Below are positions 4,795 to 12,301 of a DNA stretch of 60,484 nucleotides, piece by piece (positions within the stretch are counted from its first letter, which is position 1; each line of letters begins with the position of its first letter). The translations under genes were made by a program, and so were the position numbers. Below the pieces are notes generated by a model. It saw only the letters and a list, made by a program, of their open reading frames with translations, did no database searches and had not been told where the DNA came from. The DNA comes from a virus. The stretch lies in IMG/VR virus record IMGVR_UViG_3300035145_002886, one strand, 5' to 3'.

Positions 4795-5031
4795 CAGCTT
4801 TACCGAAGCCAGACTCTCCTTGTCATCCCTCCGTCGGGGGACCCTCATACTAGTTTGGTTTTCCATAGGAACCGGTTGCACCTGTTAAGAACCTTTTTAT
4901 GGGCAGATTACTGCCTCGGTCAAATTGGTAGTCTGCTCTCTCTACCTATAACCAAGCATCTACGTCTTTTGTTTCTAGGGACAATTCTGACGCTCTGCTC
5001 TGGAGCCATTCCTAAACCCTCGGTAAAACTG
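4795..5031 (-). ncRNA. ~240-nt structured ncRNA of unknown family (RNase P-like or 6S-like are candidates)
   Basis: GC-rich island with no credible ORF; 14-bp terminal helix CAGUUUUACCGAGG/CUUCGGUAAAGCUG and several internal hairpins; own promoter (5070-5097) and an overlapping terminator GGAGAGUC..GACUCUCC-U-rich at ~4778-4821. Confidence 0.6.
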
Positions 5032-5069
5032 TTCTAGTTATTTTTGGGTATAATAACCTTGAACAGAAT

Positions 5070-5097
5070 GTTATATATCCTTTACAGGATTTGTTTC
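5070..5097 (-). promoter_or_regulatory. middle-type promoter GAAAC-N17-(A)TATA
   Basis: Same spacing at 5070-5097, 11417-11444, 22955-22982, 39850-39877, 49128-49155, 55815-55842 and 59258-59285, each upstream of a gene or RNA start. Confidence 0.8.
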
Positions 5098-5999: not shown

Positions 6000-6017
6000 A
6001 ATTAAATTGTTTTTTTG

Positions 6018-6091
6018 TGGGCCCTGCAGGGCTCGAACCTGCGACCTACTGATTATGAGTCAGTTGCTCTAACCGGCTGAGCTAAGGGCCC
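6018..6091 (-). tRNA. tRNA-CAU (probably Ile2, lysidine type)
   Basis: Cloverleaf GGGCCCTTAGCTCAG...CT CAT AA...GGTTCGAGCC. Confidence 0.9.
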
Positions 6092-6160
6092 AAATAACCG
6101 GGTATTTGTTTTAAAGCTACCATAACCATCGCGAATGGGTAACTCCCGGTATTTACTCCA

Positions 6161-6228
6161 CTTGGACTCTCCTTTCGGTTGTAGGCGTGAGATTTGACGC
6201 CTCGTTGTTCGGCTTTCGCCTATCCAAG
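6161..6228 (-). ncRNA. small multibranch RNA with two GAAA tetraloops
   Basis: CUUGGA/UCCAAG closing stem, GGC-GAAA-GCC, AGGCG..CGCCU and CC-GAAA-GG. Confidence 0.5.
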
Positions 6229-6231
6229 AGC

Positions 6232-6348
6232 TGGGGAGTAGGGGATTCGAACCCCTACCTCTGCCTAACCAACTTAATCACACCGTGTAACTAGTATGAT
6301 GCTTTCTGTCTTAAGGTTGGAGCGTCGTACCACTTTGACTAACCCCCC
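6232..6348 (-). ncRNA. tRNA-like RNA with ~35-nt insertion in the anticodon arm
   Basis: Acceptor GGGGGGU/ACUCCCC, D arm, T arm AGGGG-UUCGAAU-CCCCU; CCAAC-CUUAAGA-[insert]-GUUGG. Confidence 0.7.
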
Positions 6349-6356
6349 GTATTTAG

Positions 6357-6430
6357 TGAACCAGACAGGATTCGAACCTGTGACCGTCTGCTTAGAAGGC
6401 AGATGCTCTATCCAGCTGAGCTACTGGTCC
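6357..6430 (-). tRNA. tRNA-Arg(UCU)
   Basis: Cloverleaf, loop CT TCT AA. Confidence 0.95.
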
Positions 6431-6444
6431 ATTCATTAAATTTG

Positions 6445-6530
6445 TACTCGAGGACGGGCTCGAACCGTCACGGACATTACTGCCCAAGGGATTTTAAGTC
6501 CCTCGTGTCTACCAATTCCACCACTCGAGC
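6445..6530 (-). tRNA. tRNA-Leu(UAA)
   Basis: Class II cloverleaf, loop CT TAA AA. Confidence 0.95.
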
Positions 6531-6533
6531 ATA

Positions 6534-6760
6534 CAGGTCCTAATTTCGTTTAGGACCAGGACGTGATCGGTTTAGGCTCTCAGCTCTAAACGATCAGCAG
6601 CTTACGCTGCTAGTGCAAATTCGTCGTTTGCGTAGATTAACCCACTCTCACTATCGCTATCAACCAATGTCAAAAGCCGGTCATCCCCATTGTAATTAAT
6701 GCCCTTGTGGAGATGGCGGGATTCGAACCCGCGTCCATCGATCCGCCAATAATGGTCATC
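6534..6760 (-). ncRNA. ssrA: tmRNA, circularly permuted (two-piece) gene; tag ANDEFALAA*
   Basis: The T-arm/acceptor 3' half GGACGCGGGTTCGAATCCCGCCATCTCCA (ends 6708) lies upstream of the 5' half GGGGATGACCGGCTTTTGAC (starts 6688). G3-U70 pair present; tag ORF at 6602-6631. Confidence 0.9.
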
Positions 6761-6773
6761 GAAGATTAATTTG

Positions 6774-6847
6774 TGGAGAATATCGGAGTCGAACCGATGA
6801 CCTCTTGCGTGCAAGGCAAGCGCTCTAGCCAGCTGAGCTAATTCCCC
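6774..6847 (-). tRNA. tRNA-Ala(UGC)
   Basis: Cloverleaf, G3-U70, loop CT TGC AC. Confidence 0.96.
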
Positions 6848-6853
6848 GTTAGT

Positions 6854-6930
6854 TGGCAGTCCAGACGGGACTCGAACCCGCGACCTCCGCCGTGACAGGG
6901 CGGCACTCTAACCAACTGAGCTACTGGACT
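6854..6930 (-). tRNA. tRNA-Asp(GUC)
   Basis: Cloverleaf, loop CT GTC AC, encoded CCA. Confidence 0.96.
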
Positions 6931-7204
6931 ATATTACACTTAGCGAGATTGACTAAGCTAGATTTTAACGGTTTAGTTTCCTCTTGAAACAAACAAACAT
7001 TAGTGTCTTACCACATAAAACTAAAAGTCAAGCTTTTGGGAGGCTCTACTATCCACCTTGATTCCCAGTCCCAGTATTTTAATCTTAAAGACCAGCTACT
7101 ACCTGTCTGATAGTCTTTCCTTCAATAAGAATTTCAGTTACCACCTGGGCATTAACTGAGGTATGTTAATGTTACCTAAACATCCAAGTATCTCTAACTT
7201 GGTT

Positions 7205-7292
7205 TGGCGGAAGATGTAGGATTCGAACCTACGGAGGTGTGACCCTCGCCGATTTTCAAGACCGGTGCATTCGACCACTCTGCCAATCTTCC
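7205..7292 (-). tRNA. tRNA-Ser(UGA)
   Basis: Class II cloverleaf, loop CT TGA AA, encoded CCA. Confidence 0.95.
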
Positions 7293-7317
7293 ATTGTTGA
7301 GATTTATATCTCATTAG

Positions 7318-7391
<74 letters not shown>

Positions 7392-7593
7392 ATATACTCT
7401 TTTTTTAAAATTAGCACTAAGAGAAACTAGCTTATCCTTTTAAAACTCTTAATACTTCGGGATTCAACCGCTCTAGTCTCAGGTTCAGCAGAACCATTCT
7501 GGTCGTTATTGACTAGCAACTCTTATAGTATATGGTGTCCATTTCTTCATCAATAGAGTGATAAGTCGTATTGATTACTCGAACAGTTTTTTG

Positions 7594-7667
7594 AGCCTCT
7601 TGAGGGATTCGAACCCACGACCTGCTGATTACAAATCAGCTGCTCTGGCCAGCTGAGCTAAAGAGGC
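7594..7667 (-). tRNA. tRNA-Thr(UGU)
   Basis: Cloverleaf, loop TT TGT AA. Confidence 0.95.
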
Positions 7668-7742
7668 AAAGGGGGACTTAGAACCTCGGTCTTATGCAAC
7701 CTAGGATTTTCTGCAGCCTGTTCATAGTCCCCAGTAAAATTG

Positions 7743-7815
7743 AGCAGAAGACGAGATTCGAACTCGCAACTTCCAGCTTGGAAGGCTGGCGCTCTACCAA
7801 TTGAGTTACTTCTGC
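7743..7815 (-). tRNA. tRNA-Gly(UCC)
   Basis: Cloverleaf, loop CT TCC AA. Confidence 0.95.
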
Positions 7816-7821
7816 TAATTG

Positions 7822-7903
7822 TGCGGATGGAGGGACTCGAACCCACAAGCCGTGAAGCACTGGTGCCTAAAACCAGCGTGTCTACCAATTTCACCACATC
7901 CGC
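7822..7903 (-). tRNA. tRNA-Leu(UAG)
   Basis: Class II cloverleaf, loop TT TAG GC. Confidence 0.95.
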
Positions 7904-7911
7904 ATAAATTG

Positions 7912-7983
7912 TAGCCCCTAGGAGAATCGAACTCCTCTTTCCAGGATGAAAACCTGGCGTCCTAACCGATAGACGAAGGGGCC
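7912..7983 (-). tRNA. tRNA-Glu(UUC)
   Basis: Cloverleaf, loop TT TTC AT. Confidence 0.95.
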
Positions 7984-7990
7984 ATGGTGC

Positions 7991-8006
7991 CAATATGTCA
8001 AAGAAC
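7991..8006 (-). promoter_or_regulatory. boxA-like antitermination element
   Basis: GTTCTTTGACATATTG just downstream of an early promoter; identical copy at 10894-10909 and variant GTTCTTTACATAA at 11158-11170. Confidence 0.7.
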
Positions 8007-8104
8007 TTCTTCTTTTAATTATATTGCTAATATAAACAAAGTTTTTTAAACCTGAAAATATTTTGCAACTTTTTTTTAACTCTTTTGAGTACACGTCTGA
8101 GTTG

Positions 8105-8176
8105 CGACCCTGGTAGGATTCGAACCTACGACCAATAGATTAACAGTCTACTGCGCTACCGCTGCGCCACAGAGTC
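8105..8176 (-). tRNA. tRNA-Asn(GUU)
   Basis: Cloverleaf, loop CT GTT AA. Confidence 0.95.
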
Positions 8177-8177
8177 T

Positions 8178-8287
8178 TTATGTATAAAATCATAAGATAT
8201 TTGAATCCATTTTTGTGGTTCGTTAAACATATCTTTCCACTTTATTCTTAAAACTTGCCAACCATTTTCAATGGCTAACTTGTCTTT
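8178..8287 (-). pseudogene. C-terminal remnant of a DUF559/Vsr-like endonuclease
   Basis: Frame KDKLAIENGWQVLRIKWKDMFNEPQKWIQISYDFIHK, preceded by an in-frame TAA and with no start codon. Confidence 0.55.
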
Positions 8288-8327
8288 TTAATACTTGTGA
8301 GTATTATATAACCCTTTTCCTAATTGT

Positions 8328-8789
8328 TTATTGAATTGTATCGGAATCTAAGATTACTACGTCTGGAATAACGATCGGTCTTATTTCAATATGGTCCTCC
8401 TGTCCTCTAACTGGCTTTTGAGTATAGCAGTAGATTGGGTGGCCATCCATATCATAGTAAAAGTATTCCTTCGTTGTTGGATCTAAGAATGCCCTATAGA
8501 TACCATTATTTTCATCAACGTATATAATTTTACCTGTTTCCGTGTCCGATCTGAGGCCGATTGAAAAGCTTTTACCTTTATTAGTCCTTGCCTCTTCGTA
8601 ATCTTGAATGTGCTGTTCGATCTTTTCCATTGATTCATTAATTTGTTGGTATTGATGAACCAGTTTATTCAGATCGCTGGCATAATTAATTACAGGGCGC
8701 ACATAGCTAATCAGGGTTATCAGTGCCCCGATTGCAGTGATTACAAAGATCACGTTGCTTGCCTTGTCTTTAAATACTTTAAATGCCAT
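8328..8789 (-). CDS. hypothetical membrane-anchored coiled-coil protein
   Basis: 153 aa with an N-terminal TM segment; GATATATA late motif at 8794-8801. Confidence 0.8.
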   Translation of the reverse strand: MAFKVFKDKASNVIFVITAIGALITLISYVRPVINYASDLNKLVHQYQQINESMEKIEQHIQDYEEARTNKGKSFSIGLRSDTETGKIIYVDENNGIYRAFLDPTTKEYFYYDMDGHPIYCYTQKPVRGQEDHIEIRPIVIPDVVILDSDTIQ

Positions 8790-8811
8790 ACATTATATAT
8801 CATTTAGTTTG

Positions 8812-8885
8812 AGGCGAAGGTTGGATTCGAACCAACGAATAACGGGTTTGCAAGCCGCTCCCTTAGACCGCTTGGGTACTTCGCC
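8812..8885 (-). tRNA. tRNA-Cys(GCA)
   Basis: Cloverleaf, U73, anticodon GCA. Confidence 0.9.
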
Positions 8886-8887
8886 GA

Positions 8888-8965
8888 TGGGGTGACCGAT
8901 CGGGTTTGAACCGACGACCTCCTGAACCACAATCAGGCGCTCTAACCAGCTGAGCTACGGACACC
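8888..8965 (-). tRNA. tRNA-His(GUG)
   Basis: G-1, C73, loop TT GTG GT, encoded CCA. Confidence 0.95.
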
Positions 8966-8969
8966 ATAT

Positions 8970-9046
8970 TGGTTGGAAGGGGCGGGCTCGAACCGCCGAC
9001 CTCTACATTATCAGTGTAGCGCTCTAACCAACTGAGCTACATTCCA
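8970..9046 (-). tRNA. tRNA-Ile(GAU)
   Basis: Cloverleaf, loop CT GAT AA, encoded CCA. Confidence 0.95.
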
Positions 9047-9054
9047 ATCTTTTG

Positions 9055-9127
9055 TCGGGATACCAGGGCTCGAACCTGGGACCTCCACGTCCCAAACGTG
9101 GCGCGCTACCAACTGTGCTACATCCCG
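9055..9127 (-). tRNA. tRNA-Pro(UGG)
   Basis: Cloverleaf, loop TT TGG GA. Confidence 0.95.
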
Positions 9128-9202
9128 TGGTCCGTATTTAGGGATATTTCTTAACCACCTCCTCAGCTCGGCAGCGGACATATCTGTCTCGTCTCGGTGG
9201 TA

Positions 9203-9284
9203 AATACTTCATAGTAGGATTCGAACCTACACCTATTCCTACATTTGCAACTGCGGTGATAGTGCCAACTTTTCCAAAAGTATT
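9203..9284 (-). ncRNA. degenerate tRNA-like RNA
   Basis: AAUACUU/AAGUAUU closing stem and a perfect T arm GUAGG-UUCGAAU-CCUAC; D and anticodon arms are poor. Confidence 0.5.
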
Positions 9285-9286
9285 TG

Positions 9287-9359
9287 TGGTTTCTACTGGA
9301 TTCGAACCAGTGACGCTCGGCTCTTCAGGCCGACGCTCTACCAACTGAGCTAAGAAACC
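9287..9359 (-). tRNA. tRNA-Phe(GAA)
   Basis: Cloverleaf, loop CT GAA GA. Confidence 0.95.
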
Positions 9360-9364
9360 AAACT

Positions 9365-9470
9365 CGTTCTACTGTCAGACTCGAACTGACATCCAGCCTT
9401 TCTGGTACTCTATGTACTATAGAGCAATCGGAGTCGAAACTGATGTGTTGCCTATTACACCAAGTAGAAC
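9365..9470 (-). ncRNA. tRNA-like RNA with 8-bp acceptor, T-loop in the anticodon position and two extra arms
   Basis: GUUCUACU/AGUAGAAC; D arm; AUCAG-UUUCGACU-CCGAU; two hairpins; GUCAG-UUCGAGU-CUGAC. Confidence 0.7.
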
Positions 9471-9474
9471 TTTG

Positions 9475-9548
9475 TACACCAGGAAGGATTCGAACCCTCA
9501 ACCTCCTGATCCGTAGTCAGGTGCTCTATCCAGTTGAGCTACTAGTGT
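9475..9548 (-). tRNA. tRNA-Arg(ACG)
   Basis: Cloverleaf, loop CT ACG GA. Confidence 0.95.
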
Positions 9549-9554
9549 ATTTAG

Positions 9555-9629
9555 TGGCAGGAGTGGGACTCGAACCCACGTCATTCGGCTTATGAGACCG
9601 AGCTGGAACCACCTCCAGTCCATCCTGCT
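9555..9629 (-). tRNA. tRNA-Met(CAU), atypical D arm
   Basis: Loop CT CAT AA, 1:72 mismatch, D arm CTGGA-GGTGGT-TCCAG. Confidence 0.85.
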
Positions 9630-9635
9630 ATATTG

Positions 9636-9710
9636 TGGGAAATATAGGATTCGAACCTATGACCCCTTGCTTGTAAGGCAAGTGCTCTGAACCAACTGAG
9701 CTAATTTCCC
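9636..9710 (-). tRNA. tRNA-Val(UAC)
   Basis: Cloverleaf, loop CT TAC AA. Confidence 0.95.
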
Positions 9711-9713
9711 GTT

Positions 9714-9805
9714 TGCTAGGGCAGGATTCGATACCTGCACGAAATGTCTCCACTCGAGTTGGACATTTTACGGAAGTCCGCGCCTCTATCTTGGGCTACC
9801 TAGCG
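9714..9805 (-). ncRNA. tRNA-like RNA lacking an anticodon loop
   Basis: GCUAGG/CCUAGC acceptor, D arm, GCGG-ACUU-CCGU mini arm, long variable arm AAAUGUC..GACAUUU, T arm GCAGG-UAUCGAAU-CCUGC. Confidence 0.65.
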
Positions 9806-9863
9806 CTTTTGCAAAATTTCTATGGTAGTGGCACCTTTACGCGGCCAATTGCTCTACTTGCGA

Positions 9864-9970
9864 TGGTTGATATGAGAGGATTCGAACCTCTTTACCTCCG
9901 CTCAACTATCCGCTCCGACTTTTACCAGAGAGATAGGAGGAACAGTGTGCCCACTACACTACTATCAATC
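9864..9970 (-). ncRNA. tRNA-like RNA with extended anticodon arm
   Basis: Long acceptor-like stem, D arm GUGU..ACAC, ~45-nt hairpin, T arm AGAGG-UUCGAAU-CCUCU. Confidence 0.6.
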
Positions 9971-10017
9971 GACAGTTTCGAACCTGTCAGTCTTAGGTTA
10001 ATTACTCCTAAGATTTG

Positions 10018-10099
10018 TTGGCAGGGAGGGATTCGAACCCCCGTACTCAATGAGAAAAGATTTACAGTCTTCCGCCTTTAACCACTCGGCCACCTACCA
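10018..10099 (-). tRNA. tRNA-Tyr(GUA)
   Basis: Class II cloverleaf, loop CT GTA AA. Confidence 0.95.
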
Positions 10100-10107
10100 A
10101 TATTTAA

Positions 10108-10196
10108 AAACACAACTCTATCTCCTTTGAGTGTTCAGGGTTGACATTGCCATTTTTCAGGTATTCTTACATATCCGTACTCCCTTAGTTGTGTTT
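10108..10196 (-). ncRNA. 6S-Flavo-like RNA
   Basis: Perfect 10-bp closing stem AAACACAACU/AGUUGUGUUU, with GGGAGUACGG and AACCCUGAAC motifs. The family assignment is from recall and was not searched. Confidence 0.5.
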
Positions 10197-10197
10197 G

Positions 10198-10270
10198 TGA
10201 CCCCTCAGGGGCTCGAACCCTGGACTCCCTCATTAAAAGTGAGGTGCTCTACCAACTGAGCTAAGAGGTC
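10198..10270 (-). tRNA. tRNA-Lys(UUU)
   Basis: Cloverleaf, loop CT TTT AA. Confidence 0.95.
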
Positions 10271-10273
10271 AAT

Positions 10274-10364
10274 ATAGATGAATAGAGGATTCGAACCTCG
10301 CTACAATTTAACTCCATTATAACAACCTGAATCGAACAGGACACGACCAACTCGCTTCATCTAT
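10274..10364 (-). ncRNA. tRNA-like RNA with two T arms
   Basis: 9-bp AUAGAUGAA/UUCAUCUAU; D-like arm; CCUG-UUCGAUU-CAGG; extra arm; GAGG-UUCGAAU-CCUC. Confidence 0.7.
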
Positions 10365-10367
10365 TAG

Positions 10368-10443
10368 TTGCGATTGAGGAATCGAACCTCGGAGGGGAGC
10401 TACCCAATACGTCTCATGAGAACGTCTCTGTACCACCATCGCA
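10368..10443 (-). ncRNA. D-arm-less tRNA-like RNA with CAU anticodon
   Basis: UGCGAU/AUCGCA; ACGUU-CUCAUGA-GACGU; variable arm GGG..CCC; T arm GAGG-UUCGAUU-CCUC. Confidence 0.6.
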
Positions 10444-10453
10444 TTAATATTTT

Positions 10454-10620
10454 ACTTCTAAAACTTCCCATTGGTTTACCCAGAAGGAATCATTCTAAAC
10501 CTTTACTGCAGTTAATCAGTTTAGCCTGGTTGAAGATCACCAATTTCTTACGAGCTTTCTCATCAACTCGGTGGTGAACCGAGCCTAGATACCAATACTA
10601 ACTCTACAACTTTTAGAAGT
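10454..10620 (-). ncRNA. ~165-nt structured RNA, unknown family
   Basis: 10-bp closing stem ACUUCUAAAA/UUUUAGAAGU, internal AUUGGU/ACCAAU and CUCGGU..ACCGAG hairpin. Confidence 0.5.
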
Positions 10621-10713
10621 CTTAAACTAAATTTGAGTTGCAAACGTTGTAGGTCTCTTTGCAAATCTATCCTACCGCTTCTACGTTCCCTTTCGGGCTC
10701 CATTAGTTTAAGA
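10620..10713 (-). ncRNA. ~94-nt structured RNA, unknown family
   Basis: 11-bp closing stem UCUUAAACUAA/UUAGUUUAAGA, CCC-GAAA-GGG and GUAGG..CCUAC. Confidence 0.5.
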
Positions 10714-10718
10714 ATTTG

Positions 10719-10789
10719 TTACCAGGCCTAGATTCGAACTAGGATTTTCTGAGTCAAAGTCAGACGTGCTGCCGTTGCACCACCCGGCA
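10719..10789 (-). tRNA. tRNA-Gln(UUG)
   Basis: Cloverleaf, loop CT TTG AC. Confidence 0.93.
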
Positions 10790-10992
10790 ATTATTAAGAG
10801 AGCCGGTCTCTCTAAGACTTACTTAAGCATATCAGCTGGGCCGTTAGACCAGCGTTCATATCAAAAGTAATATCTGTATTTTCTTAATTTTGCCAATATG
10901 TCAAAGAACTACTTTGTTTTAATTACAGTGCTAATATAAACATTATATTTGACACTGAAAAACTTTTTTCAACTTTTTTTCAAAGTTTTTTG

Positions 10993-11079
10993 CGGAAAGT
11001 AGAGGATTCGAACCTCTGGATCCCTCTCGAGATCAACTCCTTAGCAGGGAGCCACAATCGACCGCTCTGTCAACTTTCC
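10993..11079 (-). tRNA. tRNA-Ser(GCU)
   Basis: Class II cloverleaf, loop CT GCT AA. Confidence 0.95.
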
Positions 11080-11085
11080 AATTTG

Positions 11086-11156
11086 CACGTCCACAAGGAT
11101 TCGAACCCTGATCAACGGTTTTGGAGACCGCTATTCTACCATTGAACTATGGACGT
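11086..11156 (-). tRNA. tRNA-Trp(CCA)
   Basis: Cloverleaf, loop CT CCA AA. Confidence 0.95.
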
Positions 11157-11240
11157 ATTATGTAAAGAACATTGTTTTCTAATTACTATGCTAATATAAA
11201 CATTTTTTTTGAACCGGAAAACTTTTACTAAAAAAAGTTC

Positions 11241-11273
11241 AAAAAAAATGGGTCCCAATTTCTTGGAACCCAT
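11241..11273 (-). terminator. intrinsic terminator (candidate attenuator)
   Basis: AUGGGUUCCAA-GAAA-UUGGGACCCAU followed by a long U tract. Confidence 0.9.
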
Positions 11274-11298
11274 GTCAAATTAAATATGTTAAAATATA

Positions 11299-11394
11299 CT
11301 ACATCTTAACGGCAACACGGGTTCCATTCTGACAAGGACTCCAGTCCTTAGCCTGTTGAGAATAAAACGGAATATGTGTTGCGTTCAGTTGCAT
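11299..11394 (-). CDS. putative 31-aa leader peptide MQLNATHIPFYSQQAKDWSPCQNGTRVAVKM
   Basis: ATG ~25 nt downstream of the GAAAC-N17 promoter (11417-11444); contains a 13-nt complement of the terminator's 5' arm. Confidence 0.65.
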   Translation of the reverse strand: MQLNATHIPFYSQQAKDWSPCQNGTRVAVKM

Positions 11395-11462
11395 TGTTTT
11401 CTAATTTTTAGATAGTATATATAAAGATGTTTTAAAAAAGTTTCAAAAACTTTAGATTTATT

Positions 11463-12071
11463 TTACGACATTGCGTCAACTACTAATGATTTACCTCTAC
11501 GAATTCTGTTCTTCACAGTTTGTAATGGAACATTATGTTTAGAAGCAATATCTTCATATTTCATTTTACCAATCAATCGATCTTCAAGGATGTCACGATA
11601 CATTGGCTTTAAATTGTTAATACATCTTAGAGCGGTATTATATCTGTTCATTAGTTCATTCTCTTCTTCCCAATAGTCAGATTCGGTCATCATGCTTTCA
11701 GAATCTTCTAGCAACATCGCCAAATTTTCATTTAGAGAATTGTTTGAAGTTACCTCCATGCCAAACTCTTCCATTGTACTTAGGCTGTACTTCTTGTTTC
11801 TTTCACGAATGTAACCTAAGCTCTCATTGAATGCAATACGATAAAGCCAAGTTGTAATTTGATATTCTGGCTTGTATTGATCGATTTTAGTCCAAAGTTT
11901 TAGAAGAGTATTTGCTAAGACATCTTCTACTGCTTCGCTATCTTTTAAGATTTTCCATACATAGCTTTTTAGACCTGGGCGAACCTTGTCATAGAGTGCT
12001 TTGTAAGATTTTTCGGTACGATTGTTGTAGAATTCTAGTCCTAGTTGTTTGTAAGATTTTTCTTTGCTCAT
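11463..12071 (-). CDS. ECF-type sigma-70 factor
   Basis: Region 2 VEDVLANTLLKLW...ITTWLYRIAFN and region 4 MKYEDIASKHNVPLQTVKNRIRRG; start moved to MSKEK (12071). Confidence 0.93.
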   Translation of the reverse strand: MSKEKSYKQLGLEFYNNRTEKSYKALYDKVRPGLKSYVWKILKDSEAVEDVLANTLLKLWTKIDQYKPEYQITTWLYRIAFNESLGYIRERNKKYSLSTMEEFGMEVTSNNSLNENLAMLLEDSESMMTESDYWEEENELMNRYNTALRCINNLKPMYRDILEDRLIGKMKYEDIASKHNVPLQTVKNRIRRGKSLVVDAMS

Positions 12072-12088
12072 GTATTTTTTATTAGTTA

Positions 12089-12301
12089 TTATAAAGAATT
12101 TATAGTTAAATAAGTTAAACAATCTTCAACACACTCGTCAATAGTGTCAAACCCGAACCAATTTGTTGTTTTTGTTCCATCAACATCCCAGACATATTTG
12201 TAATAAGTTTCTCCACTTTTTGTTCTTATCACCTTTTCAATCTTAACAACATTTCCTGAGTTGAAGATTGCTCTCATTTTTTCTTCTAATGTAAATTCCA
12301 T
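12089..12301 (-). CDS. hypothetical protein
   Basis: ORF from MEFTLEEK, directly after the early promoter at 12312-12360. Confidence 0.7.
   Translation of the reverse strand: MEFTLEEKMRAIFNSGNVVKIEKVIRTKSGETYYKYVWDVDGTKTTNWFGFDTIDECVEDCLTYLTINSL

Follow-up and report, generated by a model that had tools for sequence, protein, structure and literature searches.

A putative leader-peptide attenuator at the head of a phage tRNA island, and the apparent mirroring of tRNA blocks by leader residues in related phages

Leader-peptide attenuators include trpL, thrL, and pheL as well as the multivalent ilvGMEDA leader, and the pheST attenuator of E. coli places an aminoacyl-tRNA synthetase operon under leader-peptide control. 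T-box riboswitches dispense with an open reading frame (ORF), each binding a single uncharged tRNA directly. Why phages carry tRNA genes is debated; the leading answers are decay of host tRNA and defences that cut tRNA. For hisL of Salmonella, termination is described as the default and ribosome stalling as leading to read-through (PMC4046918), and a study of Flavobacterium psychrophilum described strong indications that leader peptides attenuate amino-acid operons there, and reported the mechanism as likely (PMC9723704). The Anabaena trn operon is reported to hold 26 tRNA genes under TrcR, a ribbon-helix-helix repressor (PMC8421152, PMC10272220), and the tRNA-Tyr of a T5-like phage is reported to offset the anticodon nuclease of retron-Eco7, rescue depending on its expression level (PMC11555353). 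Our literature search, with most subscription literature outside it, found no paper on leader-peptide control of phage tRNA genes.

The window analyzed here, a stretch of 60,484 nucleotides, was part of a virus record of 166,616 bases (IMGVR_UViG_3300035145_002886). Pfam profiles identified T4-like capsid, portal, sheath, and terminase genes in the contig. Among annotated phages, the capsid protein best matched that of an uncultured huge phage (51%) and those of Prevotella Lak phages (38%), and no DNA similarity to annotated phages was found. Gene starts were A-rich, a Shine-Dalgarno-like motif preceded only 4 of the 143 long ORFs, and 18 of the 19 coding-strand copies of a -7-type promoter box were intergenic. 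A -7 promoter consensus and an A at -3 of gene starts have been described for Bacteroidota (PMC6847099), and the A-rich starts, few Shine-Dalgarno motifs, and -7 boxes together fit the features given in that source; we infer that the host phylum is probably Bacteroidota.

The leader region lay on the minus strand behind a phage-type promoter (11417..11444) with a -35 box at 11444-11440, a 17-nt spacer, and a -10 box at 11422-11417, in agreement with the GAAAC-N17-ATATAT promoter that an earlier note on this DNA had placed there. The leader ORF (11299..11394) had no Shine-Dalgarno motif; its ATG followed A bases at positions -3, -6, and -11 through -14, a start context matching the genome's other genes, and its A at -3 agreed with the Bacteroidota pattern reported in PMC6847099. 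Its 31 codons specified 19 of the 20 amino acids, only Glu being absent, and the first 12 residues were all different (chance about 0.01), as that note had stated. The probability of such diversity, which the note had proposed to compute, was P = 0.003 for at least 19 different residues among 31 at the genome's residue frequencies; 19 was also reached by 170 of 43,074 real protein windows and by 48 of 3000 nucleotide shuffles. The diversity of this leader, a feature picked after the fact, was thus above chance and not extreme. The peptide matched no Pfam family.

Behind the ORF stood an intrinsic terminator (11241..11273) with an 11-bp stem (11273-11248), a 4-nt loop, and a U tract (11247-11241); both sequence and folding upheld its earlier description. 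Segment 2 of the leader, formed by codons 23-27 (11314..11326), was complementary to segment 3 (11264..11276), the 5' arm of the terminator. The proposed 13-bp antiterminator (2 G-U pairs, -22.4 kcal/mol) held up in a duplex test with the terminator 5' arm, its loop, and 8 nt upstream as the partner, and none of 300 codon shuffles paired as strongly. A longer helix, missing from the earlier description, joined codons 5-11 with codons 22-28 and would hide the antiterminator strand; in untranslated RNA, its segment 1 (codons 5-11, 11364..11382) is predicted to be base-paired to segment 2. Between these segments, the hairpin first drawn as AAGGACU-GG-AGUCCUU had to be revised, as a 2-nt loop cannot close; this inner hairpin (codons 16-21, 11334..11349) folded with 6 bp and a 4-nt loop, and one of its pairs changes on both sides in relatives. 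Folding also placed an AU-rich 10-bp hairpin across the stop codon (11288..11310), which was absent from the L002 type of leader. The region folded at z = -5.13, a value reached by 0 of 200 shuffles. Among the sequencing contigs, one 257-nt contig of X2, probably DNA, spanned 11243-11393; contigs of both sequencing runs mapped to the related locus L132 (small-share runs, contigs only) did not cover the leader.

In naked RNA, helix 1:2 together with the terminator reached -51.1 kcal/mol vs -40.1 kcal/mol for the antiterminator state, and in the window's leader the antiterminator and anti-antiterminator helices are predicted to be mutually exclusive. The ribosome was modelled as an unpaired footprint reaching from 18 nt upstream of the A site to 11 nt downstream of it. 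With the whole terminator present, a footprint at codons 6-15 gave the antiterminator at 0.62-1.00 at 8 of the 10 positions. Before the 3' arm of the terminator is made, the model permitted the antiterminator with the ribosome at codons 2-20, half permitted it at codon 21, and did not permit it at codons 22-31. Elsewhere the outcome varied with the assumptions made. When the upstream footprint was set to 15 nt, a ribosome at the stop codon left the antiterminator free (1.00, vs 0.08 with 18 nt). Nascent naked RNA at equilibrium formed the antiterminator in the folding model (0.99), and ribosome-free termination would therefore require either kinetic trapping of the first helix or later dominance of the terminator.

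Under the proposed mechanism, RNA that is untranslated, or on which the ribosome has reached codons 22-32, would form the terminator. With the ribosome delayed somewhere in codons ~2-20, segment 1 would be covered and segment 2 free to capture the 5' arm of the terminator, and the resulting antiterminator would let transcription from the phage promoter run into the tRNA island. The delay would arise from a shortage of usable tRNA for the leader codons, whether by host tRNA decay, cleavage, or starvation, and since tRNA shortage would be its cause, the products of the operon would switch off their own synthesis. Translation of the leader and transcription-translation coupling in the host are presupposed; our literature search on such coupling in Bacteroidetes found only an unrelated review. 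The layout of a ribosome-mediated attenuator, recognized in the earlier note, stands as the best reading of the ORF, the helices, their conservation, and the match to the tRNA block, and we hold with good confidence that the phage-promoter transcript is subject to ribosome-mediated attenuation.

The further proposal that the leader senses the loss of almost any tRNA did not hold in that form in the folding model. The sensing zone (codons 2-19) contained 14 different residues; Cys lay outside it in a borderline position, and the only Gly, Arg, and Val codons lay at 22-31, in or behind the antiterminator strand. Sensing by codons 22-31 was rejected, as a ribosome there blocked the antiterminator in the model. 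Gly, Arg, and Val would consequently fall outside the zone, and Glu was absent from the leader altogether, although the island carried tRNA-Glu. The proposal is better stated as a switch that would sense some 14-15 of the amino acids for which the block has tRNAs, an instance of matching between leader and block. The internal promoter at 8034 was considered as the reason for the missing Glu and discarded, as Leu, Ala, Thr, Ser, and Asp of the same sub-block sit in the sensing zone.

The island (6017..11156, minus strand) held 25 tRNA genes, which together served all 20 amino acids; other structured RNAs were interspersed. These included a permuted, two-piece tmRNA (6602..6756, minus strand; RF04321, 60.2 bits, cut-off 47), vs a one-piece tmRNA in the huge phage LR756500. 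A consensus scan of the coding strand found no terminator inside the island except a match within a tRNA, which would leave the tmRNA, 4.5 kb away, within reach of read-through. Several minus-strand spacers (10290-10700, 9720-10010, 9360-9460, and 6110-6350) were tRNA-like or structured and belonged to no Rfam family; 6232-6348 scored as a tRNA with a long insert. The stretch 8180-8270 (minus strand), within the island, resembles the tail end of an endonuclease gene of the Vsr/DUF559 type that has been lost. Beyond the island, the gene-free stretch 4814-5057 (minus strand) was matched by high-depth contigs from both sequencing runs (751 and 626), one of them adapter-flanked at both ends, and was flanked by a phage-type promoter at 5097 on one side and by a U-tailed hairpin near 4816-4780 on the other. 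It had no Rfam match and folded at z = -1.84, and it is likely an abundant small RNA of related phages, without known family.

Across the 166.6-kb contig, the strict phage-type motif had 11 copies on the coding strand and none on the opposite one; 10 of the 11 were outside long ORFs, mostly ahead of DNA-metabolism genes. The motif is a real genome-wide signal. Directly upstream of the leader promoter lay a gene for an ECF-type sigma factor (11463..12122, minus strand; Sigma70_r2, Sigma70_r4_2), and the phage-type promoter is presumably read by this phage sigma factor. The early promoter that had been noted just downstream of the terminator was present and of host type (11160..11198, minus strand), with a Bacteroidota -7 box at 11198-11191; together with further host-type promoters inside the island at 10938 and 8034, three promoters bypass the switch. 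Each is followed by a motif that we take to be boxA-like (11170-11160, 10909-10899, and 8006-7996, minus strand). The motif recurs in relatives, and these motifs suggest the use of host rRNA-type antitermination. The host-type promoters could supply a fixed early dose of tRNA, with the attenuator setting a later top-up. The 15-nt start context of the leader (11406-11392) was repeated at 11184-11170 (minus strand), behind the first host-type promoter, where it yields a 4-codon ORF just before tRNA-Trp.

Among close relatives, the ORF stood before the first tRNA in L006 and L132 (31 codons) and in L002, L005, L010, and L134 (28 codons), with differing genes upstream, while L001 and L004 had no leader. 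In a six-sequence alignment, the sole gap within the ORF was 9 nt long and the flanking gaps were 1-3 nt. The window and L002 differed by 13 non-synonymous and 3 synonymous codon changes; such free change of residues is what one expects in a leader, as opposed to a protein with a function of its own. Covariation within the window's family was weak, as two-sided change was confined to one pair, the score was reached by 20 of 500 shuffles, and 8 of 10 antiterminator pairs were invariant. The antiterminator pairing recurred with other sequences in other families. In a second family (42, 45, and 48 codons), the frame was kept up to the antiterminator, and L353 shifts frame after it. The relatives thus supported the expectation of a conserved short ORF that heads the tRNA island and is linked to a terminator/antiterminator pair, and the comparison indicates that this is a real conserved regulatory element.

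Conservation also bears on whether the ribosome provides the input. The RNA switch might instead respond to a protein, to a small RNA, or to tRNA bound directly as in T-boxes, or the peptide itself might act as an arrest peptide or small protein; the strong structure throughout the ORF, a recurring His codon near position 7, and the many phage genes without known function would suit such readings. The leader RNA, however, matched no Rfam family at gathering score, none emerged among the matches with E<=10, and the Rfam search detected neither a Stem I with specifier loop nor a T-box bulge. No conserved residue sequence of the kind expected of a small protein or arrest peptide was found, non-synonymous changes being dominant, and the peptide was poorly conserved while its frame and start were kept. 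The matching of residues to the block, presented below, would moreover need decoding, which argues against a non-ribosome input. We regard such an input as very improbable and retain ribosome-mediated attenuation.

A wider survey drew on 80 sigma-linked and 10 capsid-linked loci, from which 22 leaders in about 8 sequence families were curated (20 from detection, 2 added by hand). They measured 24-48 codons, their stop codons lay 21-33 nt before the terminator, and 22 of 22 folded with long in-ORF helices besides the terminator. For 18 of the 22, at most 11 of 300 shuffles reached the complementary strand found in the last 39 nt; the antiterminator was weak in the other 4 (20-44 of 300 shuffles). 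A promoter and short ORF preceded 20 of 22 distinct terminators lying at most 200 nt from a tRNA vs 2 of 142 others (93 loci), with the detector thresholds tuned on the same 93 loci and the relatives among them not independent. Applied to a new set of 14 further stretches, the same detector returned 5 leaders at 10 tRNA-proximal terminators and 2 at 21 others. Antiterminator values were -13.2 to -18.1 in the five leaders and -2.4 and -3.2 in the two others, which had no real antiterminator. The five formed a new family, each heading the main tRNA block; L526, with 17 tRNAs, had no leader. One block head in LR756500 consisted of a 24-codon ORF and a terminator, followed by His, Glu, Val, and Trp tRNAs, with Leu 1.2 kb on. 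Loose DNA patterns in viral and genome collections gave chance matches and one true locus, L082, among 120 viral loci; a promoter/boxA pattern search gave no new loci, and alignment of the sigma factor against genome contigs gave only distant cellular sigmas (24-35% identity).

Two further observations were made among these leaders. A His codon near position 7, or its five bases in another frame, recurred across unrelated members of the 22, often within segment 1. In L358-L362, the 3' half of the inner hairpin (codons 18-20) was complementary to the terminator 5' arm (-15.1 kcal/mol) and is a possible second antiterminator strand.

The survey also addressed how much of the tRNA supply would pass through the switch. 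The switch may be inherited and largely bypassed in the window, with host-type promoters making nearly all the tRNA and the terminator mainly insulating the island from the sigma-gene transcript. The host-type promoters at 11198, 10938, and 8034 are compatible with this. Small arrays with a plain promoter only and no leader were also many among the matches listed (e.g. L350, L352, L364, L374, L379, and L385), and L001 and L004 lacked the leader. Yet the leader has a promoter motif of its own and is intact in close and distant relatives, and in 9 of the 20 leader-bearing cases the terminator stood 5-22 nt before the first tRNA, leaving no room for a promoter between, though a host-type promoter usually lay within the first few tRNAs. 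We consider it very doubtful that the switch is a bypassed relic, and a working attenuator remains our preferred reading.

The earlier expectation of maximal amino-acid diversity upstream of tRNA arrays, once checked in relatives, did not generalize. The least diverse leader held 9 residues in 24 codons and the most diverse 20 in 28, a diversity equalled by 1 of 43,503 real windows; many leaders were no more diverse than chance. On sequence comparison, the rule is that leader residues mirror the tRNA block that follows. Seven leader families were paired with their blocks, the borders drawn by us at the leaders, ARAGORN run at a lowered threshold, truncated blocks and dubious tRNA calls set aside, and four tRNAs of L425 with a separate promoter counted in its block. 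With sensing codons, no other of the 5040 permutations equalled the true pairing on either score; with whole leaders, 5 and 2 of 5040 permutations did as well. With the window left out, the true pairing was the best of 720. The match comes from relatives, as the window's own block holds all 20 amino acids and its leader fits that block imperfectly, with Glu absent and Cys, Gly, Arg, and Val beyond the sensing zone; one near-complete tRNA block would account for its near-complete leader.

Individual leaders illustrated the match. Two genomes with two tRNA blocks each had two complementary leaders. In L368, 12 of 14 sensing codons of the first leader fitted a six-tRNA block for Glu, Asn, Leu, Arg, and Met (expected share 0.27), and the sensing part of the second lacked Glu, Asn, Leu, and Cys, its block lacking Glu and Asn. 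The second leader of L347/L391 lacked exactly Ala, Asp, Glu, and Thr, the four absentees of its block (1 in 3876 for a random set). Ala and Asp were missing from both leader and block in L405. L409 fitted poorly, its leader lacking Cys and Glu though both tRNAs follow, and its block lacking Thr. In LR756500, 11 of codons 6-19 were for His, Glu, Val, Trp, or Leu. The new arrays were compared by eye. In L520, only Ala was absent, in leader and block alike; L525 had Ala in both and lacked Thr, whose tRNA lay about 6 kb beyond the contiguous block. Ala was absent from both in L523, whose leader also lacked Arg despite a tRNA-Arg, and Ala and Trp were absent from both in L521/L522, whose leaders held 7 residues without a called tRNA.

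These pairings bear on the alternative that the attenuator is a general gauge of ribosome speed or initiation, responsive to any stress on translation or to lost coupling and indifferent to particular tRNAs, with the diversity of this leader incidental. The nascent-RNA model gave the same outcome at every codon from 2 to 20, many leaders were no more diverse than chance, and each amino acid in the window's leader was represented by single codons, with no runs or clusters built from one to three amino acids; enrichment in a few amino acids was seen only in small-block leaders (the first leaders of L368/L371 and L347). A general gauge, however, would not explain why leader content tracks the block in the complementary leader pairs, the new arrays, and LR756500. 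It appears to us improbable, if a little less so than a non-ribosome input or a bypassed switch. We lean by a narrow degree towards a broader proposal: in a clade of large Bacteroidota phages, a tRNA feedback loop would operate through block-spelling leaders that are rewritten as tRNAs are gained, lost, or moved, detecting and repairing in real time the tRNA loss caused by host defences, and the window would represent its one-block, near-all-amino-acid form.

If this proposal is true, a codon-mirroring sensor would indicate on-demand tRNA production by these phages and would reveal, lineage by lineage, which tRNAs are under pressure. Attenuation would be extended from amino-acid enzymes to tRNA genes, and the leader could be leveraged as a 150-nt reporter for tRNA damage in Bacteroidota.

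Compared with described systems, the predicted switch shares with T-box riboswitches a terminator/antiterminator choice that reports tRNA state, though T-boxes are ORF-free and no Rfam match was found here. pheST likewise places a part of the translation apparatus under leader-peptide control, but for one amino acid and in a protein-coding, cellular operon. The T5-like tRNA-Tyr system supplies a reason for needing more tRNA during infection; it differs in having a strong promoter and no described feedback, and the main text of PMC11555353 mentions neither attenuation nor a leader. The Anabaena trn operon, as reported, is the nearest functional analogue, a near-complete spare tRNA set that is turned on under translational stress, but it is repressor-controlled, and the main text of PMC8421152 mentions neither attenuation nor a leader. 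Unlike hisL-type attenuators, which precede enzyme genes and carry runs of one to three amino acids, the leader type described here precedes phage tRNA genes and carries single codons of up to 20 amino acids, with the antiterminator strand of the predicted switch inside the last third of the ORF. Apart from codon runs, the sequence-testable features of leader-peptide attenuators appear to be present. As in hisL-type attenuators, a short leader ORF is combined with alternative helices and a predicted default terminator when untranslated, slowing of the ribosome would, under the footprint assumptions used, promote the antiterminator, and the sensing codons appear to relate to the product of the operon.
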